Under the pieces are notes generated by a model. That model was not told the DNA's origin. It worked only from the letters and a program-made list of their open reading frames with translations, and searched no databases. A stretch of 64,000 nucleotides of DNA, from the NCBI GenBank assembly GCA_900258555.1, contig LT984854.1, positions 1,905,239 to 1,969,238 of the forward strand, given 5' to 3'. Position 1 is the stretch's first letter. Each line of letters opens with the position of its first letter. The stretch comes from an uncultured Desulfobacterium sp. Lineage in GTDB: Bacteria; Desulfobacterota; DSM-4660; Desulfatiglandales; Desulfatiglandaceae. Below, one piece after another: positions 4,844 to 39,849 of the stretch. The translations under genes were made by a program, and so were the position numbers.

Positions 4844-4844
4844 A

Positions 4845-6315: not shown

Positions 6316-6347
6316 TTTAACTTCCTCTCAGATGATAATGGCTGATC

Positions 6348-7028: not shown

Positions 7029-7075
7029 ACTTCCTCCTGTTGTCGCACTTGGCCACAGATATGCCGCCCTGATTA

Positions 7076-10400: not shown

Positions 10401-10518
10401 TTTCTACCAGATATACGTTGTAATCCGAATTAGCGAGATCCAGTGATGCCTGCATGCCGGCAATGCCGGCGCCGACAACCATTACTGACCCACTTTTATT
10501 TGTTGTAGCTGATCCCAT
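7489..10518 (-). CDS. hdrA: HdrA-like FAD/FeS oxidoreductase, selenoprotein, about 1009 aa
   Basis: ORFs 10330..10524 and 7489..10149 share a frame. Translation across TGA c(10330..10332) is stop-free: [21 protein letters not shown]...[12 protein letters not shown]...[10 protein letters not shown]. Two Rossmann motifs ([18 protein letters not shown]) and several 4Fe-4S Cys motifs. Start set at the ATG after the AGGGGAG RBS. Confidence 0.85.
10297..10332 (-). promoter_or_regulatory. UGA(Sec) plus candidate SECIS hairpin of hdrA-1
   Basis: RNA CUGGUCG-AGGU-CGGCCGG: 7-bp stem with 2 G-U pairs and a GG-containing loop, starting 15 nt after the UGA. The 21-nt core is identical to the one in hdrA-2. 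Confidence 0.6.
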
Positions 10519-10628
10519 TATCACTCCCCTAAATAATTGACGATATTTGATTGATTGATGATTTAAGATTTTTTCTCAGTCCGGGATCTTGCCTGTGTCA
10601 ATCAATGCGCATTCGTCATTCTTCAATC

Positions 10629-11378
10629 TTAAAGCGCTGCAAACACCGGTTTGCTGTCTTCCATGCCAGTGAATGCCACCATGCTTGTCCTTTCCATATC
10701 CGCTAGGAGGTAGGAAATCCGAAGTACATCTACCCCGGTTTTTTTACTTATTTGCCTCACGTTGGTGCAGTCCTGCTTAATAGCAAGATAAATCAAATTC
10801 TTGTGATATTCCCGTTCAAGCATGTCATAGAGAACGGATTCATACTTTTTAACTTCCCACTTCCTGCCGTAGACATCACCTTTGGTGGTGATTTTGACTT
10901 CTTTACCGACCAGCCATCGCAGGGTTTCACCCTCAAGGGTCCTTTCAGCCGCTGAAAGCTGCATATCAAACATCTCTGAATCGAACCTTCCCAGACTCTT
11001 AATGGAATCGTTGACTTCAGTCGCAATCTGTACAAAACGCTGCGCCTCAGCGGATGATACCCAGGCAAAATGGAGTCTTTCTCTGCCGATGCCTGCGATA
11101 TCTAGAAGCTTCTGTGTCAAAAGGAGCTTTTTTTCAGCCTGTACATTACCCTCCAGGTAATGGCAGTCGCCGAAATGTCACCCGCCCACCATGACGCCGT
11201 CACATCCACCTTTGAGAGCCTTGACAATGAAGACCGGGTCAATACGACCGGAACACATCACCCGGATTGTTCTAAGGCTGGATGGGTATTGCAACCTGGA
11301 GACTCCTGCCAGGTCAGCGCCTGCATATGCACACCAGTTGCAAAGAAAAGCAACAATCTTTGGTTCAAAATCTGTCAT
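10629..11378 (-). CDS. mvhD: MvhD-like protein with C-terminal extension, selenoprotein (Sec at codon 67), about 249 aa
   Basis: ORFs 11178..11378 and 10629..11120 are in frame across TGA c(11178..11180): ...DGVMVGG-U-HFGDCHYLEGNVQAEKKLLLTQKLLD... N-terminus MTDFEPKIVAFLCNWCAYAGADLAG. Confidence 0.8.
11144..11180 (-). promoter_or_regulatory. UGA(Sec) plus candidate SECIS hairpin of mvhD-2
   Basis: RNA CAUUACC-UGGAG-GGUAAUG: perfect 7-bp stem with a GG-containing loop, starting 15 nt after the UGA. Confidence 0.6.
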
Positions 11379-11426
11379 ATCTTATTCCTAATCATTATTA
11401 TGTTAACAGATCATACACAACTAAAC

Positions 11427-14400
11427 TCAGGCCACCGCACTTATAGCCGCTTCAATCTGAGCATGCCGGAAATGGAGCATGTCAATAGCTTTTTGCGGAC
11501 AGGATGAAGCGCACAAACCACATCCCTTGCAAGATGCAGGGATATTTTTAGCACGTTTTCCTTTGCCCTCAACTTCCTCCAACACTATAGCGCCGAATGA
11601 ACATATCTCAGCACAAAGACCACATCCGATGCATTTTTCCACATCCACACGTGATGCAAGGGGAGAGACCTGAATAGATGCCTTTGAAAGCACTGTTGCC
11701 GCCCTGCCTGCTGCGGCAAGGGCCTGTTCAATGCTTTCATCAACGGGTTTCGGATAGTGAGCCAGGCCGCACAGGAATATACCATCAGAGGCAAAATCAA
11801 CCGGCCTCAGTTTTGCGTGGGCCTCCATAAAAAATTTCTCTTCGTTCAGAGGAAGCTTATATGATGATGCAAGATGTTCATTCTCAGAGGGTTCAATAGC
11901 GGTCTTGAGGTTGATCATATCAGCCTTTATCAACAAATTCTGTTGAAGTATAGGATCAAACACTTCCACTACAAGACCTTTTGCACCTTCTGTTACCTTT
12001 GGTTTATTTTCCCGTGTATATCGGATAAAGATAACGCCTTTTTCACGGGCCTTTTTATAAAGGATTTCTCTCTCTCCAAAGGTTCTCATATCCCTGTAGA
12101 GAATAAATACGTTGGCCTCGGGTTTATCTTCCTTTATGGAGATTGCCTGCTGAACTGATGATGTGCAGCAGATCCTTGAGCAATATGGCCTTTGATCATC
12201 CCTTGATCCGACACATTGTATAAATACGATATTATCGGCCTTTTTAAGTTTGACCGGGTCTTTTTCGAGTTCATGCCAGAGTGTTACATTTGAATTTTTT
12301 CCATACAGATATTCATCTGTACCTGCGGCCTGGCCGCCTGTGGCGATAATGACCGCACCGTGTTTGACGGTTTTTGTGATATCTTTACTCCTTATTTCTG
12401 TCTCAAAATTGCCGACAAACCCGAAGGCATTAACAACTTCTGCATCCAATATCATGTCAATGCCCGGATGTTTTCTCACCCTGTCGGCCAGTTCGGCAAC
12501 AAACCCTTTGATATCCTCTCCACCCCAAGACCTTGAAAGGTCCTTAGCTGCACCTCCTGGTTCAGATGACTTATCTACAATTGTTACAGGAAAGCCCTGA
12601 TCTGCAAGACTGACGGCAGCCGTCATTCCGGCAACACCAGCTCCTATAACAAGCGCGGATTTGTTGACATCAACGGATAAATCCGGGATGGGCTCCAGCA
12701 GGGCAACGCGGGCAACCGCCATTCGCACCAAATCCTTGGCCTTTTCCGTTGCCTTTTCCTTTTCATCGGAATGACACCAGGTGCATTGGTTCCTGATGTT
12801 AGACATTTCGAACAGATAAGGATTTAGACCTGCATTACGAATGGTCTCCTGGAAAAGGGGCTCGTGTGTCCTCGGCGTACAAGCGGCCACGACAATACGA
12901 TTAAGATTATGTTCCTTGATCACCTCTACCATCTTTTCCTGGGTATCCTGGCTGCATGTAAATAGATTGTCCTCTACGTATACAACATCCGGCAGGTTTT
13001 TGGCATATGCGGCAATTGCAGGGACATCGGCAATACCGCCGATATTGACACCGCAGTTACATACAAAAACGCCCACACGGGGCTTTTGACCCTGAACATC
13101 ATTCTCCTGTGGAAATGCCTTTTCCTTAACCAGAGTTCCCCTGGCAGGTGCCAGACCGACGCCGGCGGAACAAGCCGCAGCACTTGCCTCCATTACAGAC
13201 TGGGGTATGTCTTTGCAGCCCTGGAGCACACCTGCCACATAAATGCCTTTACGAGATGTGGAAACAGGGGACAGACTGCTCGTATTGATAAAGTTATGCT
13301 CGTTAAGCTCAACATCCAGTCTTTTTGCCAAGTCAATGGCCGAGGAGGCCGGTTCCATACCGACAGAAAGAACAACCATATCGAACGTCTCGACTTGAAT
13401 ATTACCATTTTCATCTGCATACCTTAAGGAAACGTCCTTGTTTTCAGGGTCTTCGTCAATTGTATGAATTCTGCAACGGATAAACCTTACTCCCTGCTCC
13501 TTCTTTGCGCGTTCATAATACTTTTCAAAGTCCTTTCCGTGTGTCCGCATGTCCATAAAAAAGATAGCAGTATCCAGGTCATAATCTGCATGTTCTTTGG
13601 AGATAACCGCCTCTTTGATGGCATACATACAGCAGACAGAAGAACAATAAGCATTGTCGCACTGATTGATATCCCGCGATCCAATGCACTGCAGCCAGGC
13701 AATCTTTTTAGGCTCTTTCTTGTCGGATGGCCGCACAAGATGACCCTGGTTCGGGCCTGTTGCGCTCAAGAGGCGTTCATATTCCATGCTGGTGACAACA
13801 TTTGCAAATTTTGTATACTGGTATGTCGCAAAATTATCGGGCTTAAAAGGCTCAAAGCCGGGTGCCAATATCACGGAGCCCACATTGATTGAAATGTCCT
13901 CTGTTTTCTGGGAGTGTGTTTCAAGTGTCACTGCCTTGGCCTTGCAGGCCTTGACGCACTCGTAGCACTCACAACAACCACCGCAATTAAGACAGCGTTC
14001 GGCCTCTTCCTTTGCCGATTTTTCATCTGCTGTGAGGTTGACTTCCGCAAAGCTTTTATGCCTTTTGCCAAGGGACAGGGTCGGCGCCTTTAGGCGGTGT
14101 TTCAGTGGTTCATCATCACGGATTTCAACCCAATTTGTACCCATTGGGGGTTCATCCTGCCATTCTTGAGGTAACTGTTCACCCCGAAGGTATTTTGCAA
14201 TGTACTTGGCGGCCCTTTTACCTCCATCCACCGCCTCTATTACTGTAGCAGGCCCGGTAATAACATCACCACCTGCAAATATTCCAGGCGCATTAGTCTG
14301 CAATGTTTCAGGGTTTACTACGAGGAGTTTCCATTTAGAGACCTCTATACCTGATTGATCACCAATAAAGGCAAGATCCGGCTCCTGCCCTATGGCAGGA

Positions 14401-15857
14401 ATTATATGCTCCGCCTCTATTGTGAATTCGGAACCTTCTATGGGGATCGGTTTGCGCCTACCGCTGGTATCCGGTTCTGTCAAACGGGTTTTGATGCACT
14501 CAATGCCGGTCACCTTTCCATTTTTATTAACAACCCTTACAGGGGCCGCCAGAAAATGGATCTTTACCCCTTCTTTTTCCGCCTCTTCAATTTCCTCAGG
14601 TTCGGCCAGCATCTCTGCTTTAGAGCGGCGGTAAACGATATGAGACTCATCCGCACCCAGTCGAAGGGCTACTCGCGCACCGTCCAGGGCAGAATGGCCG
14701 CCACCAATAATCACGGCCTTTCCCTTGAGTTCTTTCAGGTCTCCAAGATGCACCTCCCGAAGAAAAGATGTAACATCACTGACACCCTTTGACTCATCTC
14801 CCTGAATGTGAAGTCTTAATCCCTTCCATGCGCCGGCTCCTATAAAAACGGCCTTTGCACCGTGTTGCTGCAAGTCCCTGATGGTAAGATCCTTGCCTAT
14901 GGCTGTATTGGTATGGATTTCTATGCCGTATCTTTTAAGGTTATTGATTTCCGCATCCAGCACAGAACGGGGCAGGCGATGTTCGGGAATTCCGTAACGC
15001 ATCATTCCGCCTGCCTCAGGCATCGCCTCATAAACGCTTACCTGATATCCCTCCAACGCAAGAAAATAGGCGGCGGTAAGTCCTGCCGGACCTGAGCCTA
15101 TTATCGCCACCTTTTCATCTTTTTTAATTATTTGTGGTACTGGTATGTCATTAAGGTCCGTATGATCAGCGGCAACCCGTTTAAGTTCTCTTATGGAAAT
15201 CGGCTCGTCTATTTCGAGACGGCGGCAACTCTTTTCGCAGGCATGGGGGCAGACACGGCCAAGGGTGCCGGGAAACGGCAGATCACGCATTATGATTTCA
15301 ATCGCCTCCCGAAATTTTCCCTGTTTCACCATCTGAACGTAGCCCTGGACATTCAGATTGGCCGGACAAGCCATTCTGCATGGCGCCGTGTCCCGTTTGT
15401 CAATAGCGAATGCTCCTGGAATAGCCTGTGCGTAAGGCTTATAGGCCGCCTTTCGCCCAACCAGTTCCATATCATATTCACTGGGCCTGACTACCGGGCA
15501 AACCTCTGCACAGTCCCCACAGGCAGTGCACGCTCCACTGTCTATAAAACGCGGTGCCTTTTGAATAGTTACTTGAAAGTTGCCCTCTTCCCCAGTAATA
15601 TTTTCAACGTTTGAGCAGGTGTGAAGTTGTATATTTGTATGCCGGCCGACCTCGACCAGCTTAGGAGAGATAATTCACATTGCACAGTCGTTTGTGGGAA
15701 AGGTCTTGTCAAGCTGCGACATCACCCCGCCGATGGCCGGAGATTTTTCTACCAGATGTACGAAAAAACCCGAATCAGCAAGATCAAGGGCCGCCTGCAT
15801 TCCGGCAATGCCGCCACCAACAACCATGACAGACCCGGTTGGTTTATCTTGAACCAT
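11427..15857 (-). CDS. hdrA: HdrA-like oxidoreductase with inserted GltD/NfnB-like NAD(P)H module, selenoprotein, about 1476 aa
   Basis: ORFs 15675..15884 and 11427..15470 are in frame across TGA c(15675..15677): [21 protein letters not shown]...CTACGDCAEVCP...MELVGRK. GltD-type motifs: CPANLNVQGY, GRVCPHACEKSCRR, IIGSGPAGLTAAYFLA, IIGGGHSALDGA, IFAGGDV. HdrA motifs then resume. Start at the ATG after the CAGGAGA RBS; c15884 is the alternative. Confidence 0.85.
15642..15677 (-). promoter_or_regulatory. UGA(Sec) plus candidate SECIS hairpin of hdrA-2
   Basis: Same CUGGUCG-AGGU-CGGCCGG hairpin, 15 nt after the UGA. Synonymous differences from hdrA-1 stop exactly where the hairpin begins. Confidence 0.6.
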
Positions 15858-16208: not shown

Positions 16209-16751
16209 TCACATCATTTTGATTTTCCATTTCAGTACTTCAAGGCAGGTTGAACAAAGGGTTGGTTGCTTGAAGTCAGTATGTTCTATCTTTGTTGAAG
16301 CAAACATTATGCAACGTGGGTTTCTGCAATGGGTCAGACCAAAGGAGTGCCCAAGTTCATGGATTGCAGTCTTTCCAATCCGCGACATAAGTAGATCTGA
16401 GTCCGGCGGCTCGCCATACAATGCAGGATCAAGCCTATAAGTTGAAATCAAAGAACATCTCCCATCCAACTGGGATAAGCCGTACACATATTTTAAAATG
16501 GGTACAAACAGGTCCAAGGCAGTTACTCCCATAAATCCAAGGTTGTGGGGAGGGCATTGTTTTATCATCTGCTTTAAAATCATTTTTGAATCATACTGGA
16601 ATCTTCGATCATCGTAAGCATATCGAGGGGTTTCCATCGGAGGGTAGATTTCACAATTGATCCCACACCGCTCCTCAACACAAGCCATCAATCTGTCAAT
16701 TATATCTGAGGCTATAATGCCGATCGGGCAAATGAAAACACATTTGGACAA
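16209..16751 (-). CDS. amzA: archaemetzincin-type zinc metallopeptidase
   Basis: HELGHSFGLTHCRNPRCIM...CSTC closely matches the archaemetzincin signature HExxHxxGx3Cx4CxM...CxxC. 180 aa. Confidence 0.8.
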   Translation of the reverse strand: MSKCVFICPIGIIASDIIDRLMACVEERCGINCEIYPPMETPRYAYDDRRFQYDSKMILKQMIKQCPPHNLGFMGVTALDLFVPILKYVYGLSQLDGRCSLISTYRLDPALYGEPPDSDLLMSRIGKTAIHELGHSFGLTHCRNPRCIMFASTKIEHTDFKQPTLCSTCLEVLKWKIKMM

Positions 16752-16756: not shown

Positions 16757-18106
16757 TTATGCTTCTCCTTTTTTGATTTCATACTTTTCAATCTTGTTAT
16801 AAAGCGTCTGTCGGTCAATATCCAATTTCCGGGCTGCCCGACTGATATTCCAATCACAATCATTCAAGATGTTTAAGATATGCATTTTTTCCATCAGCTT
16901 TAATGAGTCGGGAAATGCCCGAGGTGCAGGTTTCTGATGTGAAAAGGGAAGATCATCGGGCAAAATCTCCTGGCCCCTGCCGATGACCAAGGCCCTTTCA
17001 ATGATATTCTCAAGCTCCCTCACATTACCAGGCCAGTCATAATCCATTAATAAGTTCAGAGCAGACGGGGCAATTTTTGATGTTTCCCGATTCATCTCCA
17101 GGCAATACTTGCGGATAAATGCCTTTACCAGTAAAGGGATGTCTTCTTTTCTTTCTCTTAAAGGAGGGATATGTATAGAAATAACATTCAGGCGATAATA
17201 GAGGTCCTCACGAAAACGATTTTCTCGAATTGCCTTTAAGAGATCCCTATTTGTCGCAGCAATTACCCTTACATCCACCTTGATCGTGGCCTCTCCGCCC
17301 AACCGGGCGAATTCCTTTTGTTGCAAGACCCGTAAAAGATCCACTTGTGTCTTTAGACTGATATCACCGATCTCATCCAGAAAGATGGTGCCCTTATCAG
17401 CCATTTCAAAACGTCCTCGTTTTGCATGATCAGCCCCTGTAAAAGCCCCCTTTTCGTATCCGAACAGCTCGCTTTCCAGGAGGGAATCAGGCAATGCGCC
17501 GCAACTGACTGCAACGAAGGGCATATAACAACGGCTGCTGTTCCCATGAATGGCCTGGGCCACCAGTTCTTTGCCTGTGCCGCTCTCCCCTGTGATAAGC
17601 ACTGTCGAATCTGTAGGCGCCACACGGCCTATCAAATCGAAGATCTCCTGCATAGCGTCACTTTTCCCAATAATTTCATCAAACTGATATTTCTCTTCCA
17701 GCTTTTTTCTCAGCAGCAGGTTCTCCATTACCAATTCTTTATGCTCAACTATCTTTTTGATATGGATTTCTATTTCATCAGGATCAAAGGGTTTTACCAG
17801 ATAATCGAAGGCTCCTTCCTTCATTGCCAGGACAGCAGTATCTACGGTAGCATAGGCTGTCATTATAATGATTTCAGACTCAGGACTTACGGACCTGAGT
17901 TTCATAAGCGCCTCAAGACCATCCATCCCGGGCATTTTTAGGTCGAGAAAAATCACATCAAAGGCCTTTTCAAGGGCCATGGCAACGGCCCTTTCCCCGC
18001 TTGGTGCCACAGCAACAGCATAACCGTCCTCCATTAACCAATCCTTCAGACTTTCCCGCATGGCCGCTTCATCGTCAACAACTAGAATTGAGGGTTTTTG
18101 TGCCAT
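16757..18106 (-). CDS. sigma54-dependent response regulator
   Basis: REC (ILVVDDE, FLDLKMPGMDG), AAA+ core (GESGTGKE, GAFTGA, FREDLYYRL), C-terminal HTH. Confidence 0.9.
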   Translation of the reverse strand: MAQKPSILVVDDEAAMRESLKDWLMEDGYAVAVAPSGERAVAMALEKAFDVIFLDLKMPGMDGLEALMKLRSVSPESEIIIMTAYATVDTAVLAMKEGAFDYLVKPFDPDEIEIHIKKIVEHKELVMENLLLRKKLEEKYQFDEIIGKSDAMQEIFDLIGRVAPTDSTVLITGESGTGKELVAQAIHGNSSRCYMPFVAVSCGALPDSLLESELFGYEKGAFTGADHAKRGRFEMADKGTIFLDEIGDISLKTQVDLLRVLQQKEFARLGGEATIKVDVRVIAATNRDLLKAIRENRFREDLYYRLNVISIHIPPLRERKEDIPLLVKAFIRKYCLEMNRETSKIAPSALNLLMDYDWPGNVRELENIIERALVIGRGQEILPDDLPFSHQKPAPRAFPDSLKLMEKMHILNILNDCDWNISRAARKLDIDRQTLYNKIEKYEIKKGEA

Positions 18107-18131
18107 CAGTTATTCCTCCGCTTCTTCAAAA

Positions 18132-20594
18132 TTATGCTACAGGCAATCTTATCCTAAATGAAGTGCCTTTTCCTATTTCGCTTTCGACGTCAATCGAACC
18201 ATTATGTCTGGTTATTATTCCGAAGACTACAGAAAGACCAAGCCCGACACCCTTTCCTTCCTCCTTGGTTGTAAAAAACGGTTCGAATATGTGTTTGATC
18301 TCTTCATCAGGTATGCCGCACCCTGTATCGGAAATTAGGATTTCAACAAAGCCATTATTCCCCGGATACCCGGCTGATACAGTAATGGTGCCGCCTTTCT
18401 CCATGGCCTCGGAAGCGTTAACTATAAGATTCAAAAGCGCCTGTTGAATCTGTTTGAAATCGCATAGAATTTCAGGTAAATTCGGGGCCATTTCCTTTTT
18501 CACATGCGTATTTTTAATCTCAAGGTCATGGGTGATCAGTAAAAGGGTTCGGTCAATAATTTCGGTAATGCTGTGGGATTTAATATCAACTTTTGAATGA
18601 CGGGCAAAGGCCAGAAGGTTTTTCACAATTTCCCCGCATCTGGTTACTTCCGATTCCATTGTCCCAAGATATCTTTTTACGTCTTCGCTCCTTTCCTGGC
18701 TAAAGAAGAGGCCCCTCTCAACAAGCTTTATCATCAACTTTATATATGTCAAAACCGCAGCCAAGGGATTATTTATTTCATGCGCAATGGTGGCGGATAA
18801 TTTACCTAAAGAAGCAAGCTTCTCCGTCTGAATAACTTGTTCCTGGATGGCCTTTAACTGCTCATAGGCGCGCTTGCTCTTTTCAAACAAGTTTGCATTG
18901 TCTACAGCAACTCCCAATTGATTGCCGACCACAGTCAGAAATTCTACGTGATATGATGAGAATTTGTATTCAGAATGGGTTGATACGCTCATTACACCAA
19001 GTGATTTGCTTTTGGATACGAGCGGGATGTAGACGGTGGATTTGAGGCCTTCTTTTTTAAGAGTTTCAACATAGGGGTCATTTGAATGCAAAAAATCATC
19101 CACAATAATCGTCCTTCCGGTAAGCACAGTCTGTCCCACATGACCATCACCTATCCTTCTGGATCGCATGAAATCCTGTGAAAAGAAATCTTTTGAAAAT
19201 CCCTTATGGGCTGCCAGGTTAAGCTGCTTTTCATCTTCAGCCAGCAGATAGATCCTGACACTGTCCGGCTCCATGATTTCAGGTATCTCCAACATCTTGT
19301 CAATACTGGAGTAAAGGATTTCGTGTAGGTCTAGGCTGGTGCTGACGGCCATTGATATGGCCTTTAGGATCGCAAGCCGGATATTTCGTATCTGGATCTG
19401 CTTCTGTGCCATTTTTCTGGTGGTTATGTCCTTTATAATTATTACATATCCCGTAAGTTGTCCTCCCTCATTAAGGGTGACATTGGAGGTGATCAGTGCC
19501 TCGAATGCCTTGCCGTTATTTCCCATCAGTCTGGTCTCAAATTCCTTGACATAGCCGTCTGTGGTAATGCTTTTTTGTAAGTCATAAAAGGATTTTTTGT
19601 CCTCAAGAAGTTCTGAGGCCGACTTAAGCGCCAAAAGTTCAGTCTTGTTATCGTAACCGAACATCTCAACCCCTGCCTGGTTTATTTCGAGAATCTTGCC
19701 ATTGGAATCCACCAACATGATTGCATCGCTGGAACGTTCAAATATAGTCCTATATTTTTTTTCCGATTCCTGCAACTCTCTCAAGCGTTGGGCCAAAAAC
19801 CCTTCCATCCTGCCTGTAACCCCGCTTAGATCAGCCTGAAGGAGTTTCTTTTTTGTTATGTCAGTAGCTGTTTCAAGGACATAGATAATTTTGCCCTTCT
19901 GGTTTGTTACAGGAGTAGAGCGGACGAGCATGCGGGCGATTGAACCGTCATCCATCACAACATCTTCTTCCTTTGTATGTGATTTTCCATCACGAAATGA
20001 TTTTTCAACAAGGCAGTTGCTGCATTTTTTTTCTCTTTTTTTCCATATGCTAAAGCACGGGGCATCGGAAAAGGATCCGAATCTTTTCTTGAAGAGATCA
20101 TTTGCCATGATGATCTGGTAATTTCTGTTAACCCCCACAACATAGTCGGTGACACTCTGCAGAAGCGCCTGATAACTAGCCTCGGCCTCTCTGTATATTT
20201 CCTCCTCTCTCAGGATTTTTTGATAGGCCTGCACTATCTTGACCAGGAGATGCTCCATTTGCACAGGCTTGCCCAGATAATCAAAGGCCCCCTGTTTAAT
20301 GCCGTTAACGCCGTCCTCTGTTGTTGCATAGCCCGTAAGGAGCAAGACCTCAGTCTTCAGAGATTTCTTCTTCACATAATCGAGGACCTCAAAGCCGTCC
20401 ATACCAGGCATTTTGATGTCCAGAATCAAAACATCAATCTTTTCCCTGTTGAGAATAGAAATACACTCTTCCCCGCTTCCAGCCTGTTGACAAACAATGC
20501 CTCTTTTCTTGAATGCCCTGGCAAGACCTTGACGAAATGGCTCTTCGTCATCAACTAAAAGGAGTCTTAAGTCTTTTAGATTTATTGGCGTCAT
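18132..20594 (-). CDS. hybrid sensor kinase (REC-PAS-PAS-GAF-HisKA-HATPase)
   Basis: ORF 18132..20642. Start moved to the ATG preceded by AAAGGAG (MTPINLKDLRLLLVDDEE). H-box IAHEINNPL. HATPase DTGCGIP, GVGLGLSV. Confidence 0.85.
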   Translation of the reverse strand: MTPINLKDLRLLLVDDEEPFRQGLARAFKKRGIVCQQAGSGEECISILNREKIDVLILDIKMPGMDGFEVLDYVKKKSLKTEVLLLTGYATTEDGVNGIKQGAFDYLGKPVQMEHLLVKIVQAYQKILREEEIYREAEASYQALLQSVTDYVVGVNRNYQIIMANDLFKKRFGSFSDAPCFSIWKKREKKCSNCLVEKSFRDGKSHTKEEDVVMDDGSIARMLVRSTPVTNQKGKIIYVLETATDITKKKLLQADLSGVTGRMEGFLAQRLRELQESEKKYRTIFERSSDAIMLVDSNGKILEINQAGVEMFGYDNKTELLALKSASELLEDKKSFYDLQKSITTDGYVKEFETRLMGNNGKAFEALITSNVTLNEGGQLTGYVIIIKDITTRKMAQKQIQIRNIRLAILKAISMAVSTSLDLHEILYSSIDKMLEIPEIMEPDSVRIYLLAEDEKQLNLAAHKGFSKDFFSQDFMRSRRIGDGHVGQTVLTGRTIIVDDFLHSNDPYVETLKKEGLKSTVYIPLVSKSKSLGVMSVSTHSEYKFSSYHVEFLTVVGNQLGVAVDNANLFEKSKRAYEQLKAIQEQVIQTEKLASLGKLSATIAHEINNPLAAVLTYIKLMIKLVERGLFFSQERSEDVKRYLGTMESEVTRCGEIVKNLLAFARHSKVDIKSHSITEIIDRTLLLITHDLEIKNTHVKKEMAPNLPEILCDFKQIQQALLNLIVNASEAMEKGGTITVSAGYPGNNGFVEILISDTGCGIPDEEIKHIFEPFFTTKEEGKGVGLGLSVVFGIITRHNGSIDVESEIGKGTSFRIRLPVA

Positions 20595-20877
20595 TCTTTC
20601 TCCTTTAAACCGGTGAAGCACTAATTGACTTTCAAAACGCACCCCGAAAATTCCGGATTCTTAACCCACTAATATAAGCCGGATTGATTTTAAAGATTTT
20701 TTGGTTTTTTGCAAGGAAGGTTTCTTATCGAATACCACGAGGCCAGAGAGGGTTGATAACAAGAAACATATTAAAGAGGCAAGCGTGCCGGGGTCAACAA
20801 ATCCGATTAGGTCGCAAACGTGAACCGGCTTTTGATATGGTGCTTTAAGCAGGAACTATAAGACTTGATTCTATTTT

Positions 20878-21804
20878 TTATGTCCTGAGAAATACTTTTG
20901 CGAGTCTCCCCCATTCCAATTGAGGCATGTTTCCGAATATATCATCACCGAAGAAACCCCCGTCTGTTGTCATTGGACCAGCCACTTCTTCAATTTCTCG
21001 ACAAAGCAGATCAACCTGTTTGTCCATGAATGCGCTGCTTTCATTATGTATCATCAGATTTTTCATATCCATACGCAGGCTGTCAGGCCGGACCATCATG
21101 ACCCATCCCTCGGAGTAAGGATTCCTGTTGGCAAGGCACCCATCCTCCCTCAGAGTTGAATTGATTGAGGTGACTATCCCGCTTACGGGTGAGAGCATTC
21201 TAGCAGTGTTTTTTCCACGTGCAATTGAGATATCTCCCCTGCCCTGCCTTATTTCCCTGCCGACCAACGGTGCCTCAATTTTATCAAGCGGGCCAAGCAG
21301 GCGCAGGGCGAAATCATCTATCCCTATCCTTACAGAGGAGCTTTCCTCTATTTTCATCCAGGTATGACCCTGGTGGAAATAATAGCCCTGAGGGATCTTA
21401 AAGCCCTTAACGTCAAGGACATCAACAGGCCTAACCACGGCATGCACTGAGTACTGATCATCAAAGAACTGATCAAAGTCACAACTGCCGCAGCGATATT
21501 CCATGTGGCACAACCGGAATTCTATCCGGCCTTTCATGTGATGGATGCACGGCCTCTTGGATAAAGGCCTGGCCAGAAGCCTCTCCTTCCACGATACGAT
21601 CCTCCCCCTTTTTCCAAAGGGAATAATGCCGGAGCGTTTCAGCGAAATGTTTTCTTCAGCCAGGTTATTCATCACCCTGTCATAACGGCATCTCGGGCAG
21701 TTATAGTCCTCATGGCACAACTTATGATCCACAACACCGGCCTGCATCCATATACAAGGCTGGTATTGCCGTTTAAGACGATTTTCAGAACCGGTTGTTT
21801 GCAT
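20878..21804 (-). CDS. Cys-rich protein with C-terminal GcvH-like (lipoyl/biotinyl-fold) domain
   Basis: Two N-terminal Cys motifs (CIWMQAGVVDHKLCHEDYNCPRCRYD; CIHHMKGRIEFRLCHMEYRCGSCDFDQFF). GcvH-like C-terminus (GHTWMKIE..., SPVSGIVTSIN, NPYSEGW). Confidence 0.75.
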   Translation of the reverse strand: MQTTGSENRLKRQYQPCIWMQAGVVDHKLCHEDYNCPRCRYDRVMNNLAEENISLKRSGIIPFGKRGRIVSWKERLLARPLSKRPCIHHMKGRIEFRLCHMEYRCGSCDFDQFFDDQYSVHAVVRPVDVLDVKGFKIPQGYYFHQGHTWMKIEESSSVRIGIDDFALRLLGPLDKIEAPLVGREIRQGRGDISIARGKNTARMLSPVSGIVTSINSTLREDGCLANRNPYSEGWVMMVRPDSLRMDMKNLMIHNESSAFMDKQVDLLCREIEEVAGPMTTDGGFFGDDIFGNMPQLEWGRLAKVFLRT

Positions 21805-21889
21805 TTTTAAGCCTTACCTCTCTTGGAAGTTGTTAATGTCCCTGAGCTATGAGCAGTTAGCCTTCAACAAAAGATCCTAAAATAAATTA

Positions 21890-22873
21890 TTATGTCCTAA
21901 GAAAGGTCTTAGTAAGATTATTCCAGCCCAAATCGGGGAGGTTCCCATATATATCATTAGTCAAGAAGCCACCGTCAGCGGAAAGGGGCCCGACTTTTTC
22001 CTCTATCATGCCCTCCAATTTGCCGACCTCGCCGTTGATCCACCTAAGCCCTGCGCTATCATCCATAAGCTTCTTTGCAGCCGCCTTTATGTCGGGGCAA
22101 TGGATCATGAAAAGCCACCCTCCGCCATAAGGTTCCTGATTGGCCTGCGCAGGATTTTCCCTTACATCTGCATTTACCTCCATGATTACGCCGTCAACCG
22201 GAGAAAGCACCTCAGCAGAGTTGTCTTTTCGTTTAAGCCCCCAGCCGACCTTGTCTGCATCCAGTTCCTTGCCCATTTTAGGGAGTTCAAAGGCATCCGC
22301 CTTACCCAGTAACTTTAAGGCGAAGTCATCAAGACCGACCCTGACATAGCCGCCGCTTTCAATCCTTACCCAGGTGTGACCGTTATGAAAATAGTAGCCC
22401 ATTGGGATGTCAAATCCCTTTACCTTATGCATTTCATACGGGAGGGTCTTGGTCTTTGCGGTCCATACATCCTCAAAGAACTGATCAAAGTCGCACTTGG
22501 AACATTCAAAGTCATACGCACACGACCTTTTTTCTATCCGGTTTGTCAGGCTGTGCCTGCATACCCTTTCAAGGCCGGATCTTTTTCTCATGGCCTCCTG
22601 CCAGCTCATCTGCTTATTTTCGCTGACCCTCTTATTCATTCCCAGGTCATACTTACACGTAGTGCAATCATAAAAATTGTTACAGTTTTTGAATTCTACA
22701 ACACCTGCCTGCATCCAGATGCACGGATTTGCCGACTTCGCATCCTTATCAGGTCTTACCATCCAGACCTGACCTCCTAGAACAGCGCCGATCTCTGACC
22801 TGGTCCCAAGGTCATGACCACTACCCTTTCTGTAAGATGATCCGTAGCCTATTTGAATTTTATTCTCGTCCAT
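21890..22873 (-). CDS. Cys-rich GcvH-like protein, paralogue of 20878..21804
   Basis: Same architecture (CIWMQAGVVEFKNCNNFYDCTTCKYD; CRHSLTNRIEKRSCAYDFECSKCDFDQFF; GHTWVRIE, SPVDGVIMEVN, EPYGGGW). Start set at the ATG after the AAGGGAGG RBS rather than c22942. Confidence 0.75.
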   Translation of the reverse strand: MDENKIQIGYGSSYRKGSGHDLGTRSEIGAVLGGQVWMVRPDKDAKSANPCIWMQAGVVEFKNCNNFYDCTTCKYDLGMNKRVSENKQMSWQEAMRKRSGLERVCRHSLTNRIEKRSCAYDFECSKCDFDQFFEDVWTAKTKTLPYEMHKVKGFDIPMGYYFHNGHTWVRIESGGYVRVGLDDFALKLLGKADAFELPKMGKELDADKVGWGLKRKDNSAEVLSPVDGVIMEVNADVRENPAQANQEPYGGGWLFMIHCPDIKAAAKKLMDDSAGLRWINGEVGKLEGMIEEKVGPLSADGGFLTNDIYGNLPDLGWNNLTKTFLRT

Positions 22874-23259
22874 TTTATGCCTCCCTTTCATGAGTTGTGC
22901 CGTGTTTTGTTTATGATTATACAAGAGCACAGAACATGCCACCAGAGGAGATTTTTATTGAGCGTATCAATAACAATTTGATATAATTATTTAATTAAGT
23001 TATTTTTACAATGTGGTCAGATTTGCGAAAGGAAAAACATACAGAAGAGATTCAATTAAAATGTAGCGATATTATGCTATAGATATCCCCTTATACCGTT
23101 CTAACCCAAAAATGTACTATTTTTTCAGAATGTTAGAGGCATGCCGTTTTTTTAAACAACATTGTTGTTTAATGCAACACAGCCCGGCAATAAAAAAAGT
23201 GTACTTCTGCCGGCACGTCAGCGTGGTGAGCACAGTTAAATTATGACATTCGCAATCGT

Positions 23260-24515: not shown

Positions 24516-26795
24516 CTAAGCCGCCTGTGCCATAGCAGAAGAATCGTTTCTCATATTCCGGATAAATTCAAGATCCATTTTGCTCCTTTCAGCCATCCTG
24601 TTTTCGACTTCCGATCTGTTAAGACCCATCAGGATCTTGTAGGCGTTATATTTGGTCTTGCAAAAGTATATATCAAACGGCATTGAGCAGTCTTCTCCCC
24701 TGAATATACGAATGCCTGGGACCTCTTCTTTCTGTATATACTCGAATGCTGTGTTGATCAACAAGGGCTCGATATCGTGCTTGTTCTGCCAGGGTATGCA
24801 TGTGCCTTCCATTTCAAGCACCGGATCCATTATTGACCTTACCTTTTCAGTAACGCCTCCAACAGGAAGGACAATGTCTCCGGTCAGTGAGCCTGTTACC
24901 CCGTATTTTTGATTTACAGGCTGTTTTATGTAGTCGGAGATCAGGGCGATATCCATTGCAACAGAAGCGCTGTCGCCTTCCACCCCGCCATGGGCCTGAA
25001 TATACTCCACATGCATTTCATAGCCCACATATGGGGCTCCGATCTTGTTGAATATTTTCTTTATGGAGGCCCTTACATTTTGGGCCGCTGCCTTTGCAAT
25101 GTCACCGGTCTTTCCAGACGAAGTAACCTTATCAGAGCCCCCTGCATTGACCTGGCCGTGAATCGGCAGGGGTTGGCCATACATCTGGCCGCTCGCCTGA
25201 GAATTAATTACAGCAAGACCAACTACATATCCTATTGAGTCGGTCATGGAGCTTATAAATTTCTTCAGGTCTTTCTTATGTTCGATCAGCTCTCTGCTTA
25301 AGGCCCCTTCAAGACTCAGGTGCTCTTTAAGCGCATGTCTAACATGTTCGGCCTCGACCAGAGGAGAGTTTTCATATATGGCCTCGTACTCGGCCGTTTT
25401 TATAATACCGTTCATAGGTCTTAGAATGCTGCTCAGTTTCCGGTCCGAAGCCCGGCATCTTAGTTCCTTGATAATCTCCAGGATCGCCCCCCTGGAAAAA
25501 TCCCTTGCCTCCAACCTGTAATTTAAGGGCAGGCATCTGCCTAGCAGGAATTCGCTCCTTAACTTTACACCTATATGGCCCTCTTTTTCTACAACTTTAC
25601 CCCACGCTTCCTTAAACTCTTTATCCAAATTTATTATTTCCTGCTTGATATATTGAACAAGTTGTCTGATTGTCTCTTCGCATTCCGGTACCGATGTCTC
25701 CATCTGAATTATCTCACCCTTATCCTCTATCCTGCTCAGAAATGAGCCGTCGCCTTCCTTCTGTAGATATTCCAGGGTGTCGTGATTGCAACAGGCGACT
25801 ATGATGTTGTCGGCCTTAAGTGCATTCTCGGATTTATCCGCTGCGCCGCTCCCGGTTTCTTTTCCGCCTTCAAGAAGGTATTCCTTATTCTGCATGATTT
25901 CCAAAAGCTCTGACATATAGCCGATCTTAATCATTGTCTTTATCTCATCAATGTAGATAATTGGAGATTTTGCATGGACGCCCAGATACGCCCTTTTGTG
26001 AGTAGGGGTGTGGAGGTTTCCGGACTGATATGGGTCATGCCTGAACCCGCCTTTCATGCTCCTAGCATTTGGTTCAGAAACCCTGGCCATCAGACCTTTG
26101 TCTTTTCTGGGGTCATACAAGACATCAGGCATCATATCGTAGAGATGTTTAAGGGAGTTTTGTTTTCCCCCTGCGCTTTCTCTTTGTATCTTTTCCTGTG
26201 CCTTGTGATTGTTTTCCTGCATATACATGAAAATGGCGCCTATACCGCAAAGACCGGTTGCGACAAACGCGGGAGAAAAAAATACGCCGGCAACCGCGCT
26301 TATCCCTGTAAGCCACAAGAGCCACTTTTTTGTCTTGTTTACAGGAATAATCTGATCGGAGAGACTGAATTCATCTACATTGTTTTTTGCCTCTTCCAGT
26401 TCATTATGCAGGTCTGAAAGCACTACATCAACCGTCTCCGGGTCTTCATAGGCAAAACGTATATGATTCTTGTCTTTTCCGGGATAGGCAACAATTGCAT
26501 CTTTTGGCCTGAGATAATCCCCCAATGATTTTTGCAGGACTTCATTAAACATGTTGGCGAGCATGGATTTTCCTGTCCCTGGTTTTCCGACCATAAGAAT
26601 ATGGCCCCTGTTTTGGGCTATCTTTCTTATCGCCTTTTTGGCCTTATCCTGAAATATTACACGCTCTATAGGGTCTTCCGGCACCGTTACGCGGGATGTG
26701 TCCTCGAGTAGTCCCAAACTATTTTTCAGAGACTCAGGATAATCCATCAGCTCTCTTATCCAATTATAATCATTTTCCTTGAAATCATTATTCAT
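24516..26795 (-). CDS. LonB-type (archaeal-type, membrane-anchored) ATP-dependent Lon protease
   Basis: Walker A (GKPGTGKSML), hydrophobic hairpin inserted before Walker B (WLLWLTGISAVAGVFFSPAFVATGLCGIGAIFMYM ... IIYIDEI). S16 protease domain with GDSASVAM and GGVTEK. Confidence 0.85.
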   Translation of the reverse strand: MNNDFKENDYNWIRELMDYPESLKNSLGLLEDTSRVTVPEDPIERVIFQDKAKKAIRKIAQNRGHILMVGKPGTGKSMLANMFNEVLQKSLGDYLRPKDAIVAYPGKDKNHIRFAYEDPETVDVVLSDLHNELEEAKNNVDEFSLSDQIIPVNKTKKWLLWLTGISAVAGVFFSPAFVATGLCGIGAIFMYMQENNHKAQEKIQRESAGGKQNSLKHLYDMMPDVLYDPRKDKGLMARVSEPNARSMKGGFRHDPYQSGNLHTPTHKRAYLGVHAKSPIIYIDEIKTMIKIGYMSELLEIMQNKEYLLEGGKETGSGAADKSENALKADNIIVACCNHDTLEYLQKEGDGSFLSRIEDKGEIIQMETSVPECEETIRQLVQYIKQEIINLDKEFKEAWGKVVEKEGHIGVKLRSEFLLGRCLPLNYRLEARDFSRGAILEIIKELRCRASDRKLSSILRPMNGIIKTAEYEAIYENSPLVEAEHVRHALKEHLSLEGALSRELIEHKKDLKKFISSMTDSIGYVVGLAVINSQASGQMYGQPLPIHGQVNAGGSDKVTSSGKTGDIAKAAAQNVRASIKKIFNKIGAPYVGYEMHVEYIQAHGGVEGDSASVAMDIALISDYIKQPVNQKYGVTGSLTGDIVLPVGGVTEKVRSIMDPVLEMEGTCIPWQNKHDIEPLLINTAFEYIQKEEVPGIRIFRGEDCSMPFDIYFCKTKYNAYKILMGLNRSEVENRMAERSKMDLEFIRNMRNDSSAMAQAA

Positions 26796-27984
26796 TGCTG
26801 TATCCCTTGATAGAATCTAATAAATAGTATTTTCCGGCCTCGGACACCATGGCCATTTTGTTGATCATTGAATACAATTCAGGCAATCTTTCCTTTATTG
26901 GGTCAAGCGCCCTTACATCGTGCAGCACTGATACATTGGTAAACAGCTTTTTTGCGCCAGAATTTGAAGTCGGTACGTAATTAAAGAGGATGCCCAGTTG
27001 TGAATTTTTTAATGATTTCATTACGGCATCTTTTTCGGTCTCACCAATATGATAGGCAGTAAAGATGTCTTTATACAATGACGGCAGCGGGGATTTTGTA
27101 TAGTCTATTTCCAGTTGATCCTTGAATAACAGCCTCAATGGCCTCGCATTTCCCTGTGTGCAAAGGCTCAATGAGTTGTTGAATTTAGGATTTACCTTGA
27201 TGGAATGTTCAAGTAAATGCATATGGTTTATCAAGTTTGCATCATTAATCCAAAATTCCAAATTCCCGTCCACATTGATAACGCAATACCTTGGCCGCCC
27301 TTCAGCAAAAAATTTAATGAGACGGTGTGAATTCTTGGCGTTATAGGAATTGAAATCAAACCCGCTCATCTCAAAGAGTCCTTGAGAGACATTTGCCCGT
27401 TCCAATATGACACCTACATCTTTTTGTAGAAAATTGCCCATATAATTGATCTTTTCTTCAATGTCACCCTTCAGATTCAACAGAGACCTGTTGCCGCCAA
27501 TGTCTTCACATATGCCGACAATATTGGTCAATTTCGTGCGATCCAATCTATTAAGCTGTTTTATCAAAGGATCATAGGCCCTTAAGGAAGCGTGTATCCT
27601 TTGCACATGGGCATTGAGGTCGCTGTCTTTTAAGGTAACGCCGCCCTTGTCACGGGATGCCATAAGGGTAATTGAAGATTTTGTTGCTTCTTTTATAAGA
27701 GGCTTGAATCTGCCAGACAGGATTGATCTGATCCTGTTTCTGGCTTTATCCGAAAATTCTTGTTTATAATATATATCACACCCTACCAAAATCTTTCTAA
27801 CTTCAATCGGATTGGGGTTTAGCAGATACCTGGCAAGATCGGAGATCCAATATTCAGTTACAAAATTGGTCTGGATCTCATTGTCAATAGCACTAAGGTC
27901 AAACTTGGCAGGCCGACCTTTTGAGATTATCCAGATATCGTTATTTCGCAAGAATTGTTGACTCTTTTCAAATGTCATTTCCAT
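26788..27984 (-). CDS. hypothetical protein (398 aa) translationally coupled to the LonB-type protease
   Basis: Long intact ORF overlapping the Lon start by 8 nt. No motif or TM segment recognised. DNA looks AT-richer than its neighbours. Confidence 0.65.
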   Translation of the reverse strand: MEMTFEKSQQFLRNNDIWIISKGRPAKFDLSAIDNEIQTNFVTEYWISDLARYLLNPNPIEVRKILVGCDIYYKQEFSDKARNRIRSILSGRFKPLIKEATKSSITLMASRDKGGVTLKDSDLNAHVQRIHASLRAYDPLIKQLNRLDRTKLTNIVGICEDIGGNRSLLNLKGDIEEKINYMGNFLQKDVGVILERANVSQGLFEMSGFDFNSYNAKNSHRLIKFFAEGRPRYCVINVDGNLEFWINDANLINHMHLLEHSIKVNPKFNNSLSLCTQGNARPLRLLFKDQLEIDYTKSPLPSLYKDIFTAYHIGETEKDAVMKSLKNSQLGILFNYVPTSNSGAKKLFTNVSVLHDVRALDPIKERLPELYSMINKMAMVSEAGKYYLLDSIKGYSNE

Positions 27985-28252
27985 TCACCCGTCTATCGGA
28001 TTAATCATGTCTGTTGTTAAGTGCTTACGCAATTGATGTGCCACAAATCTTCATATGTTCTCATTCCAATTAAAATATAATTTCAACAGGTTATGTGTTG
28101 CTGAAAATTAAAGTCTAAAAATAGGTAATAATATTCCAATATTATTCGGAAATCTTATTACACTTATTGGTAAAAGATTACACAGCATGGCGTTGTGAAA
28201 TTTGTGTCAACTGGCGGGATAAGCGTCAGAGATGATGGGTGAGTTATATGCG

Positions 28253-36503: not shown

Positions 36504-36533
36504 ACCAAAAACCATCGTGCTTTCCGCTTACCT

Positions 36534-38231: not shown

Positions 38232-38374
38232 AGGAGGAAAGAGTAAAGAAATTTGACGTGACGTTTATTTGAATTTGCAAGATATCTGCCAAAACAGTTG
38301 CTCTGATAGAAATTTATCCAACATTTTGATTTTACATAGTATTTTTCGGTCAGGCTTAAAATCAGCATCTTAAA

Positions 38375-39841: not shown

Positions 39842-39849
39842 TTAAGCCG

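Follow-up and report, generated by a model that had tools for sequence, protein, structure and literature searches.

The stretch of DNA analyzed here, referred to as the window (64,000 nucleotides in full), carries two adjacent genes whose products join a duplicated four-cysteine module to a domain resembling glycine cleavage system protein H (GcvH). The two genes, termed B and A, and their parts are listed below.

21890..22873, minus strand: gene B, an ORF of 327 aa with a Pfam GCV_H match and about 1200 homologs
22739..22873, minus strand: B-specific N-terminal extension, GYGSSYRKGSG...IGAVLGGQVWMV.PDK, strongly conserved among B orthologs
22415..22732, minus strand: duplicated Cys4 module of B (Cys 51, 64, 70, 73 and 105, 118, 124, 127)
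22058..22393, minus strand: GcvH-like domain of B, with Asp217 at the lipoyl column (codon 22223-22225)
20878..21804, minus strand: gene A, an ORF of 308 aa with a Pfam GCV_H match and 1294 homologs
21409..21771, minus strand: duplicated Cys4 module of A (Cys 17, 30, 36, 39 and 86, 99, 105, 108)
21022..21381, minus strand: GcvH-like domain of A, with Lys198 at the lipoyl column (codon 21211-21213)

An earlier note, made from the sequence alone, had described these genes as tandem paralogs, and this is borne out by two minus-strand ORFs whose products are 41% identical over 297 residues (BLASTP E 7e-89). In the operon, B comes first and is separated from A by 85 nt. The start of B can be placed at an ATG on the basis of a ribosome-binding site, AAAGGGAGG, and of homolog lengths of 327-332 aa. 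From N to C terminus, B consists of its conserved N-terminal extension, the duplicated Cys4 module, the GcvH-like domain, and a C-terminal helical extension, while A comprises the last three of these parts in the same order, and the C-terminal extension is conserved in both. Wherever a related locus has both genes on the contig, A lies downstream of B. Furthermore, exactly two module matches were obtained in 79 of 85 sources, with the pair broken by a contig end in most of the others, and no module copies beyond the A/B pair were found in the window or in 84 related loci. The tandem arrangement in the related loci examined, together with the divergence of the hairpins of A and B, fits an obligate pair.

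The Cys-rich regions also proved to be much as they had first been described, namely two copies per protein of a C-x(10-12)-C-x5-C-x2-C motif, except that the spacing can now be given as exactly C-x12-C-x5-C-x2-C in both copies of A and both copies of B. That the two repeats represent an internal duplication is shown by an ungapped BLASTP alignment (E 6e-9), which brings all four Cys residues into register; all eight Cys columns are conserved at 94-100% among 242 sequences. Overall, the features that the earlier note had described from the sequence are real and lie far beyond chance.

Pfam and NCBIfam searches with A, B, and the isolated module gave no significant match for the Cys module. Similarly, a PDB fold search with the isolated module returned no match (best E 6.7), and a PDB sequence profile search with the module returned nothing at E<=10. 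CHY and other zinc fingers show only faint, sub-threshold similarity to the module (E 0.05-0.9), and the zf-CHY comparison itself (E 0.07-0.9, 10-14 bits) stays below its 31.3 cut-off. One JGI annotation reads 'CHY-type Zn-finger'. Neither A nor B nor the isolated module has a Fer4-family Pfam match, and the ferredoxin motif CxxCxxCxxxCP is not present. The AlphaFold model of the A module has a pLDDT of 89.7 and places the last two Cys residues of each repeat where a long helix begins. The module is thus an uncurated domain, and its confidently predicted fold matches nothing solved. It is a putative metal-binding module, for either Zn or Fe-S. A hidden Markov model of the module retrieves 588 cluster representatives.

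The GcvH fold that had been proposed for the second domain is supported by Pfam GCV_H matches (PF01597) in both proteins (E 5e-21 for A and 7e-22 for B) and by the AlphaFold model of A, which matches the solved H-protein 1onl in Foldseek at E 3e-12 with a TM-score of 0.90 normalized to the target. Foldseek superpositions of this model with 1onl and 3ab9 give TM-scores of 0.90-0.92, again normalized to the target, and an rmsd of 1.5-1.8 Å. The lipoyl column was set by ungapped HMMER alignments to the solved GcvH structures 1onl and 3ift, which place Lys198 of A and Asp217 of B there, in agreement with the residues assigned earlier by eye. What did not survive is the further proposal that one paralog keeps a functional lipoyl-Lys. 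Among the 121 sequences of the A group, including the window copy, Lys occupies this column in 12, with S35, E28, A15, K12, N6, and G6 as the commonest residues, and the two nearest relatives of A (84% and 82% identical) carry Gln. Lys is found in none of 121 B orthologs and in one of 37 distant proteins with a module and a GcvH-like domain. The lipoyl-Lys has therefore been lost, and Lys198 of A is a freely varying residue at the tip of a hairpin. Arg196 of A, two residues before the lipoyl column, is invariant, and the hairpin of B, W-G-L-K-R-K-[ED]-N, is highly conserved.

Additional features found upstream of B concern the control of the gene pair.

22926..22941, minus strand: predicted sigma-54 (-24/-12) promoter, TGGCATGTTCTGTGCT, which starts 68 nt ahead of the ATG of B
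23163..23179, no strand assigned: a palindrome, TGTTGCATTAAACAACA, that is a candidate enhancer (UAS) and precedes the promoter by 238 nt
23142-23161: degenerate second UAS copy

The window sequence fits the -24/-12 promoter pattern (GG-N10-GC, TGGCAC-N5-TTGCW) and lies at a suitable distance from B. This is the sole strong sigma-54 site near the B-A operon in the window, and no well-scoring sigma-54 promoter was found there before the Hdr/MetFV cluster or the kinase operon. Of 74 related loci, 72 have a near-consensus site, TGGCA[CT]-N5-TTGCT, that precedes B by 70-105 nt; its mean score is 13.7, compared with 9.7 when the opposite strand of these regions is scored. An 8-mer enrichment upstream of the promoter gave no motif, after which a half-site palindrome search revealed the enhancer sites. 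In 71 upstream regions, 17-bp palindromes of the form TGTNG-N7-CNACA are confined to positions of about -118/-127, -208/-218, and -229/-239 relative to the promoter, within the range of roughly 100-250 nt expected of upstream activator sites. Of these regions, 47 have a proximal palindrome and 64 a distal one. One palindrome was shared among 13 sequences, whereas any one palindrome was shared by at most four in shuffled controls. In the window itself, a single perfect palindrome and a degenerate one are present, and the proximal enhancer site is missing. Another perfect match, at 7041-7057, has a GC-rich center, is probably due to chance, and was set aside.

On the other side of the gene pair lies an operon for a two-component system and a protease.

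18132..20642, minus strand: cytoplasmic hybrid histidine kinase, REC-PAS-PAS-GAF-HisKA-HATPase
16757..18106, minus strand: NtrC-type sigma-54 enhancer-binding response regulator, REC-AAA+-HTH_8, the proposed activator of the B-A promoter
16209..16751, minus strand: archaemetzincin (peptidase M54), the last gene of the kinase/activator operon

One PAS domain of the kinase bears a Cys pattern common to orthologous kinases, and the archaemetzincin (150.9 bits against a cut-off of 145) keeps its HELGHSFGLTH motif intact and also has a Cys4 site. In the gap between A and the kinase gene, an intrinsic terminator search gave only a weak hairpin. In 34 of 50 species-level loci, A is followed by the archaemetzincin gene and an orthologous activator gene (52-55% identity), in 24 of them within 300 nt. 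The protease gene co-occurs with the activator and a module-GcvH gene in closely and distantly related loci alike, and the synteny of kinase, activator, and protease extends over large evolutionary distances. In about one third of loci with enough flanking sequence the operon is not nearby, and the cognate activator is thus assigned by adjacency only. Also, Desulfobacteria carry 50-70 activators per genome (PMC12316311), which means that some of this adjacency will arise by chance.

The same components recur around more distant relatives. In four loci with a distant, single-copy module-GcvH gene (L169, L170, L171, and L172), that gene is directly preceded by a strong sigma-54 site, and the locus has no other such site. 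The gene order in L170 is kinase, archaemetzincin, activator, promoter, and module-GcvH gene, and in L172 the module-GcvH gene is convergent with genes for the archaemetzincin, activator, and kinase. The module is also found in response regulators of the form REC-(TPR)-module, which have a basic helical tail after the module, and in a kinase of the form TPR-module-HisKA-HATPase. Of 59 loci with REC-module genes, 49 show a sigma-54 promoter, TGGCAAGAAAATTGCA, that precedes the gene by about 70 nt, and in 26 of 38 the gene immediately before it codes for an activator; these genes, too, adjoin kinase/activator pairs. The associated kinases carry either Cys/His-bearing PAS domains or, in 12 of 26 loci, N-termini resembling [FeFe]-hydrogenase together with ferredoxin. 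One REC-module protein has an added 2x[4Fe-4S] ferredoxin domain. These features hint at a redox signal, as do the frequent oxidoreductase neighbors described below. The idea that REC-module genes generally head NuoE/NuoF-type operons was rejected when a NuoE-like gene was found to follow in only three of 33 loci.

A second theme in the gene context is electron transfer. The Hdr cluster of the window consists of MetF, MetV, MvhD, and HdrA genes plus an NfnB/HdrA fusion, situated 5-15 kb from the gene pair, and no HdrB/C-type (CCG) match was found in this neighborhood. A radical-SAM ORF elsewhere in the window (41365-42669) is unrelated. Of 41 loci with long flanks, 18 contain HdrA-like or NfnB-HdrA-like genes, as does the window, and HdrA, NfnB, MvhD, MetFV, Rnf, or NuoEF-like genes are frequent neighbors in general. 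Distant relatives lie beside NfnB-like and formate-dehydrogenase-like genes, Rnf genes, or NuoE/NuoF-like genes. The suggestion in the earlier note of a sigma-54 and Hdr neighborhood holds in part: the link to sigma-54 is stronger than had been supposed, with a promoter, enhancer sites, and an adjacent activator, but the Hdr genes are not of the sHdr type.

These observations can be accommodated by a model in which a two-component system of the cytoplasm, probably one that senses redox state, has A and B as its dedicated sigma-54 targets and as its partners, an interpretation that is favored tentatively and that has a little less than an even chance of being right. The B-A pair would form a two-gene operon read from the predicted sigma-54 promoter. 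The adjacent NtrC-type regulator (16757-18106), phosphorylated by the Cys-bearing PAS kinase (18132-20642), would be the protein most likely to turn this promoter on. The products, as cytoplasmic paralogs, probably assemble into a heteromer in which the duplicated Cys4 module would behave like a signaling domain and the GcvH-fold domain, free of lipoylation, might serve as a scaffold for protein interactions. A and B might then sense or relay the redox or metal status of the cytoplasm and, by analogy with the action of ZraP on ZraSR or of PspA on PspF, could feed back on the kinase or activator. The co-conserved archaemetzincin may control the two proteins by proteolysis. A broader and bolder version of this model appears rather unlikely. 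It would make the module an undescribed metal-cluster (probably Fe-S) sensory domain of sigma-54 two-component systems in several phyla of anaerobes (Desulfobacterota, Dehalococcoidia, and Planctomycetota), operating in a four-part circuit with a kinase, an activator, and an archaemetzincin. In such a circuit, the Cys-module proteins would signal the redox or H2 status of the cytoplasm, exert feedback on the kinase or activator, and be controlled proteolytically, with the de-lipoylated GcvH fold as a docking domain.

Several other explanations need to be weighed against this model. The frequent Hdr, Nfn, and MetFV neighbors could instead indicate a direct role in electron transfer. The module would bind Fe-S through its eight invariant Cys residues, and the GcvH-like domain would dock onto nearby flavin-based bifurcating enzymes (the NfnB-HdrA fusion, HdrA, MvhD, and MetFV), making A and B electron-transfer or adaptor subunits that act as redox partners or assembly factors, with sigma-54 serving only to time their production. 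The Hdr-related genes in 18 of 41 loci and in the window, the oxidoreductase genes beside the distant relatives, and the ferredoxin domain fused in one REC-module protein all agree with this possibility. However, fusion of the module to receiver and kinase domains is typical of signaling proteins rather than of electron carriers, fewer than half of the loci have the Hdr neighborhood, and NuoE-like genes only rarely follow REC-module genes. Moreover, the module has neither a ferredoxin-type motif nor a Fer4 match, and the Hdr cluster of the window has no upstream sigma-54 promoter. This role is judged unlikely. The earlier idea of a lipoylated carrier, in which A would be a GcvH/LbpA-like protein with a swinging lipoamide arm and B its degenerate partner in the service of an Hdr-type system, draws on the Lys of A in the source genome, the GcvH fold, and the Hdr-type genes 5-15 kb away. 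It is by far the least credible explanation. The poor conservation of Lys at this column across A, B, and distant relatives largely refutes it and led to its rejection, because a column without a conserved Lys does not support an LbpA-like role; for an LbpA, the Lys has to be strictly conserved and an sHdr cluster has to be present (PMC6067878). A and B also miss the NCBIfam cut-offs for GcvH (69.7-78.5 bits against 115.85 for TIGR00527 and 117 for NF002270). The window ORFs scanned gave no match to the lipoate ligase family PF03099 and none of the LipA-type, GcvT, or GcvP kinds, and the Hdr genes are of the HdrA/MvhD/MetFV type without HdrB/C.

A different kind of regulator is conceivable if the module is a structural Zn module that contacts nucleic acid, RNA polymerase or sigma-54, or the activator, in which case B, A, and the REC-module proteins would be outputs that modulate transcription. 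Proteins of the REC-(TPR)-module form have no other candidate for an output domain than the module, which is followed by the basic helical tail, and an output that binds nucleic acid or RNA polymerase could be as plausible there as a sensory function. The faint CHY/zinc-finger similarity, the JGI annotation, and the predicted position of the last two Cys residues of each repeat at the start of a long helix are all consistent with a zinc finger. Yet no zinc-finger family or solved fold is matched significantly, the module is also found ahead of a HisKA kinase core, which would be unusual for a DNA-binding output, and no role with nucleic acids is known for the GcvH-like partner domain. Zinc-finger regulators are viewed as quite improbable.

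There are practical consequences to these findings. Genes of this type are labeled 'glycine cleavage system protein H' in about 450 species-level genomes and more than a thousand metagenomic clusters. This label is misleading because A/B-type proteins, given the variability of their lipoyl column, would be unable to carry lipoate, and the error has consequences when the metabolism of sulfate reducers using the Wood-Ljungdahl and glycine pathways is reconstructed. The Cys module adds a new, uncurated domain that recurs in response regulators and a kinase. Also, with a promoter, enhancer palindrome, activator, kinase, and protease defined, the locus offers a testable regulatory unit and thereby a route to a cytoplasmic signal, whether redox, H2, or a metal, that might be sensed through one of the many sigma-54 activators of these abundant anaerobes.

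The earlier note knew of no characterized function for this architecture, and none was found for it in the literature, whose full-text coverage excluded most subscription-journal papers; the curated families of Pfam and NCBIfam likewise gave none for the Cys module. Certain known systems nevertheless share individual features with A and B. The C-terminal domains share with GcvH (PF01597, TIGR00527) the fold and the motifs HxW, G.DDFA, LP..G, SP.sG..., N, and PY..GW. Unlike GcvH, A and B lack the conserved lipoyl-Lys and have the invariant Arg two residues before that column, score about 70-78 bits against equivalog cut-offs of 116-117, are longer by approximately 130-150 residues at the N-terminus, where the Cys module lies, and by approximately 55 at the C-terminus, lack gcvT and gcvP neighbors as far as the window ORFs scanned show, and are predicted to be under sigma-54 control. 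GcvH-L of Streptococcus and Staphylococcus is a GcvH-like paralog outside glycine cleavage that is lipoylated and ADP-ribosylated and is encoded in a macrodomain/sirtuin operon. Its structure (PDB 5a35) is matched at E 1.6e-5, but neither the Lys nor the macrodomain/sirtuin partners are present for A and B.

LbpA proteins have a strictly conserved lipoyl-Lys, and hdr-lbpA clusters include LplA-like ligases and two radical-SAM proteins, with the sHdr cluster itself arranged as hdrC1B1A-hyp-hdrC2B2 (PMC6067878). A and B resemble LbpA in having a single GcvH-like domain, conserved cysteines in the protein, and some Hdr-related neighbors. They differ in that the Lys is unconserved, the cysteines sit in a separate N-terminal domain, and no LplA-like ligase or HdrB/C was seen among the window ORFs scanned. 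The carrier role for an Hdr system that the earlier note had suggested by analogy with LbpA is thus matched neither by a conserved Lys nor, among the window ORFs scanned, by an sHdr cluster or by adjacent ligase and radical-SAM maturation genes.

An organizational parallel is offered by the ZraP/ZraSR and PspA/PspF systems of E. coli, in which the kinase and/or sigma-54 activator adjoins a sigma-54-driven operon and a small accessory protein is the main target. The window likewise has a kinase and activator beside a sigma-54-driven operon with accessory products. A and B are related to ZraP and PspA neither in sequence nor in fold, however, and are cytoplasmic and Cys-rich; their feedback is a hypothesis, and an archaemetzincin protease belongs to the conserved gene set. 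The orp operons of Desulfovibrio vulgaris provide an example from a sulfate reducer. OrpR is a sigma-54 activator that is linked to redox sensing through an Fe-S cluster and controls adjacent operons of poorly understood proteins, which are different from A and B and for which the abstract reports neither the module nor a GcvH-like domain (PMC8359166). Sensing by OrpR takes place in the activator itself, whereas the window activator is a response regulator predicted to be controlled by phosphorylation.

Genes A and B encode tandem paralogues that can be aligned over their full lengths (41% identity, E 7e-89).

21890-22873, minus strand: gene B, an ORF of 327 aa counted from the ATG
20878-21804, minus strand: gene A, an ORF of 308 aa, head to tail with B and starting 85 nt downstream of it

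The ATG chosen for B has a good ribosome-binding site and agrees with homologue lengths of 327-332 aa. The pattern C-x12-C-x5-C-x2-C occurs twice in the N-terminal half of each protein, and the two copies are homologous to one another (E 6e-9); this 2xCys4 unit is called the module below. Each C-terminal half matches Pfam GCV_H (E about 1e-21), with scores well below the NCBIfam GcvH cut-offs. In HMMER alignments to solved H-proteins, which run without gaps across the lipoyl hairpin, Lys198 of A and Asp217 of B occupy the lipoyl-lysine column. Because the ORFs, their paralogy, the GCV_H match, the Lys/Asp difference, and the Cys repeats were all verified, the sequence observation of the earlier note is confirmed throughout. 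B also has a strongly conserved N-terminal extension of 45 residues that is absent from A (22739-22873, minus strand; GYGSSYRKGSG ... IGAVLGGQVWMV.PDK).

More than 1200 homologues of each paralogue are present in the metagenome protein collection, and relatives are encoded in about 448 species-level genomes, the best 80 of which are all Desulfobacterales, Desulfobacteraceae, Desulfatiglandales, or unclassified Thermodesulfobacteriota/'Deltaproteobacteria' MAGs. When the window proteins were aligned with 120 homologues of each paralogue, each of the eight Cys residues was 94-100% conserved, and Arg at position -2 from the lipoyl column was invariant in both groups. The column itself holds S (35), E (28), A (15), K (12), N (6), G (6), and rarer residues in the A group, and E (51), D (43), N (15), G (7), and rarer residues, never K, in the B group. 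The two nearest relatives of A (84% and 82% identity) carry Gln there, and the 12 Lys-bearing sequences are spread over the similarity ranking rather than grouped. Lys is found in just one of 37 representatives of distant module+GcvH proteins (clusters at 50% identity).

The earlier note had suggested a carrier resembling LbpA. LbpA proteins are defined by a Lys that is strictly conserved and by their place in hdr-lbpA clusters, which include ligases dedicated to them (PMC6067878). None of these traits is present for A and B, whose Hdr-type neighbours are instead MetF, MetV, MvhD, HdrA, and an NfnB/HdrA fusion. The window ORFs that were scanned include no lipoate ligase, GcvT, or GcvP. Given the unconserved Lys, the missed GcvH cut-offs, and this context, a lipoate-carrier role is judged highly improbable, and Lys198 would be incidental. 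The public annotation of the homologues as 'glycine cleavage system protein H' is therefore misleading.

The earlier note placed a sigma-54 gene module nearby; the window has the following sigma-54-related features.

22926-22941: predicted sigma-54 promoter of B (TGGCATGTTCTGTGCT), upstream of B
23163-23179: candidate enhancer palindrome, perfect, with a degenerate neighbour
18132-20642, same strand as A and past it: histidine kinase
16757-18106, same strand as A: NtrC-type sigma-54 activator
16209-16751, same strand as A: archaemetzincin (M54), HExxHxxGxxH motif intact

A near-consensus TGGCA[CT]-N5-TTGCT lies 70-105 nt 5' of B in 72 of 74 related loci, with a mean promoter score of 13.7 versus 9.7 for the opposite strand. 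In 71 regions, 17-bp palindromes (TGTNG-N7-CNACA) occur 5' of the promoter only at about -118/-127, -208/-218, and -229/-239, the proximal one in 47 regions and the distal in 64. The kinase/activator/archaemetzincin operon lies beyond A in 34 of the 50 species-level loci with sufficient flank; it is convergent with A in all 34, and less than 300 nt away in 24. One locus (L001, 9122-14182) lacks this operon and has B-A flanked by SpoIIE/PP2C phosphatase and PspA/PspC genes. The window kinase (minus strand) carries a PAS domain with C-x11-C-x2-C at residues about 190-215. The pattern is conserved as KCH-x10-C-x6/7-CP in orthologous kinases (L035, L046, L052-L079) and may mark a site that senses metal or redox state; the PAS domain of the Desulfobacterales kinases shows a conserved Cys/His pattern.

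Distant single-copy module+GcvH genes, whose module is only about 28% identical to that of A, extend this picture. In L169, L170, L171, and L172, the only strong sigma-54 site per locus is directly 5' of the module+GcvH gene. The order in L170 is kinase, M54, activator, promoter, module+GcvH gene; in L172 the module+GcvH gene is convergent with M54, activator, and kinase. The predicted sigma-54/kinase/activator logic of B-A thus holds at great evolutionary distance. Other conserved N-terminal additions occur in distant module+GcvH proteins (P0316, P0319, P0323, P0336, P0337; P0298, P0334, P0338, P0390; P0272): a Cys-containing MKCPFLEE..V.YC, IDQPFDYEEV..GP.YV, or a second whole module.

A profile of the module found 588 proteins at E<=1e-3 among 1.84 billion cluster representatives. 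Architectures in the best 150 of these were as follows.

62 of 150: module + GcvH-like domain
34 of 150: short or stand-alone module, fragments possibly among them
8 of 150: receiver domain N-terminal to the module, often with TPR
1 of 150: TPR-module-HisKA-HATPase kinase

Since it is fused to receiver and kinase domains, the module behaves like a signalling domain. The receiver-module family is large, includes Dehalococcoidia and Planctomycetota members, and has one variant with an extra 2x[4Fe-4S] ferredoxin domain. Its genes are directly 3' of kinase/activator pairs. The predicted sigma-54 promoter TGGCAAGAAAATTGCA is present about 70 nt 5' of them in 49 of 59 metagenome loci, and an activator gene is the immediate 5' neighbour in 26 of 38. 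Kinases with [FeFe]-hydrogenase large-subunit-like and ferredoxin N-termini are upstream in 12 of 26 receiver-module loci.

L085, 2557-4497: hydrogenase-like kinase
L170, 1741-3771: hydrogenase-like kinase, in a module+GcvH locus

These are candidate H2/redox sensors feeding sigma-54 activators. Just 5' of kinase/activator/receiver-module clusters on two Dehalococcoidia-type contigs (L085, 1442-2557; L087, 1128-2291) are short sigma-54-like genes (371-387 aa) in which only Sigma54_DBD was detected.

An AlphaFold model of A (122-sequence alignment) has a mean pLDDT of 82. Superposition of its C-terminal domain on H-proteins gives TM-scores of 0.85-0.92, normalised to target; about 55 further residues, conserved and helical, extend the protein beyond this domain. 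The isolated module was modelled at pLDDT 89.7 and pTM 0.76 (86-sequence alignment, distant relatives included). A PDB fold search with this model gave no match (best E 6.7), a profile search of PDB sequences nothing, and Pfam and NCBIfam hold no model for it, only zinc-finger noise below threshold. The earlier note knew of no characterised function, and no description of family or module was found in the full-text literature searched, whose incomplete coverage makes an earlier description possible. The module appears to be a domain new to science.

The 64-kb window contains three histidine-kinase/sigma-54-activator gene sets (18-4888, 16757-20642, 38483-41289), which fits the very high activator counts in Desulfobacteria (PMC12316311). 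A second near-consensus sigma-54 promoter (TGGCACATCAATTGCG, 28028-28043, minus strand) is 5' of a 398-aa ORF (26788-27984) with no Pfam or NCBIfam match, after which comes a 759-aa AAA+/Lon_C protein (24516-26795). Another sigma-54-like site (TGGCAGATATCTTGCA, 38276-38291, minus strand), just 3' of the activator gene 38483-39841, has no convincing minus-strand ORF behind it. On the plus strand (36129-38180), a 124-aa ORF in which a LysR-type HTH is the sole domain match precedes a 548-aa ORF with no Pfam match and faint radical-SAM (PoyD-like) similarity.

Sequence and synteny firmly support B-A as a predicted sigma-54-dependent operon whose products combine a GcvH fold that is not lipoylated with a hitherto undescribed 2xCys4 domain, and as part of a conserved gene set that also encodes a cytoplasmic kinase, a sigma-54 activator, and an archaemetzincin. 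What the proteins do can be stated only tentatively. The module might bind metal, and an A/B heteromer might sense or relay redox or metal status and feed back on the two-component system, perhaps under control of the protease; taken jointly, these steps form our favoured reading, at somewhat below even likelihood. The main rival casts A and B as Fe-S adaptors or electron-transfer partners of neighbouring bifurcating enzymes, with the sigma-54 system only timing their synthesis. A minus-strand cluster (5392-15470) encodes MetF, MetV (DUF5981), MvhD, an 886-aa HdrA-like protein, a 163-aa MvhD-like ORF, and a 1347-aa NfnB/GltD + HdrA-like fusion, with no HdrB/C-type gene seen; comparable HdrA/NfnB/MvhD/MetFV genes are near B-A in 18 of 41 related loci, and other redox neighbours include Rnf, NuoEF-like, and NfnB-like plus formate-dehydrogenase-like genes. 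We consider this rival unlikely, and a zinc-finger output touching nucleic acid or RNA polymerase slightly less likely still.

ZraP and PspA exert feedback on their own circuits, and the proposed A/B feedback would resemble theirs. Sigma-54 two-component circuits and GcvH-fold proteins are both of already known kinds; the novelty added here would be the module.
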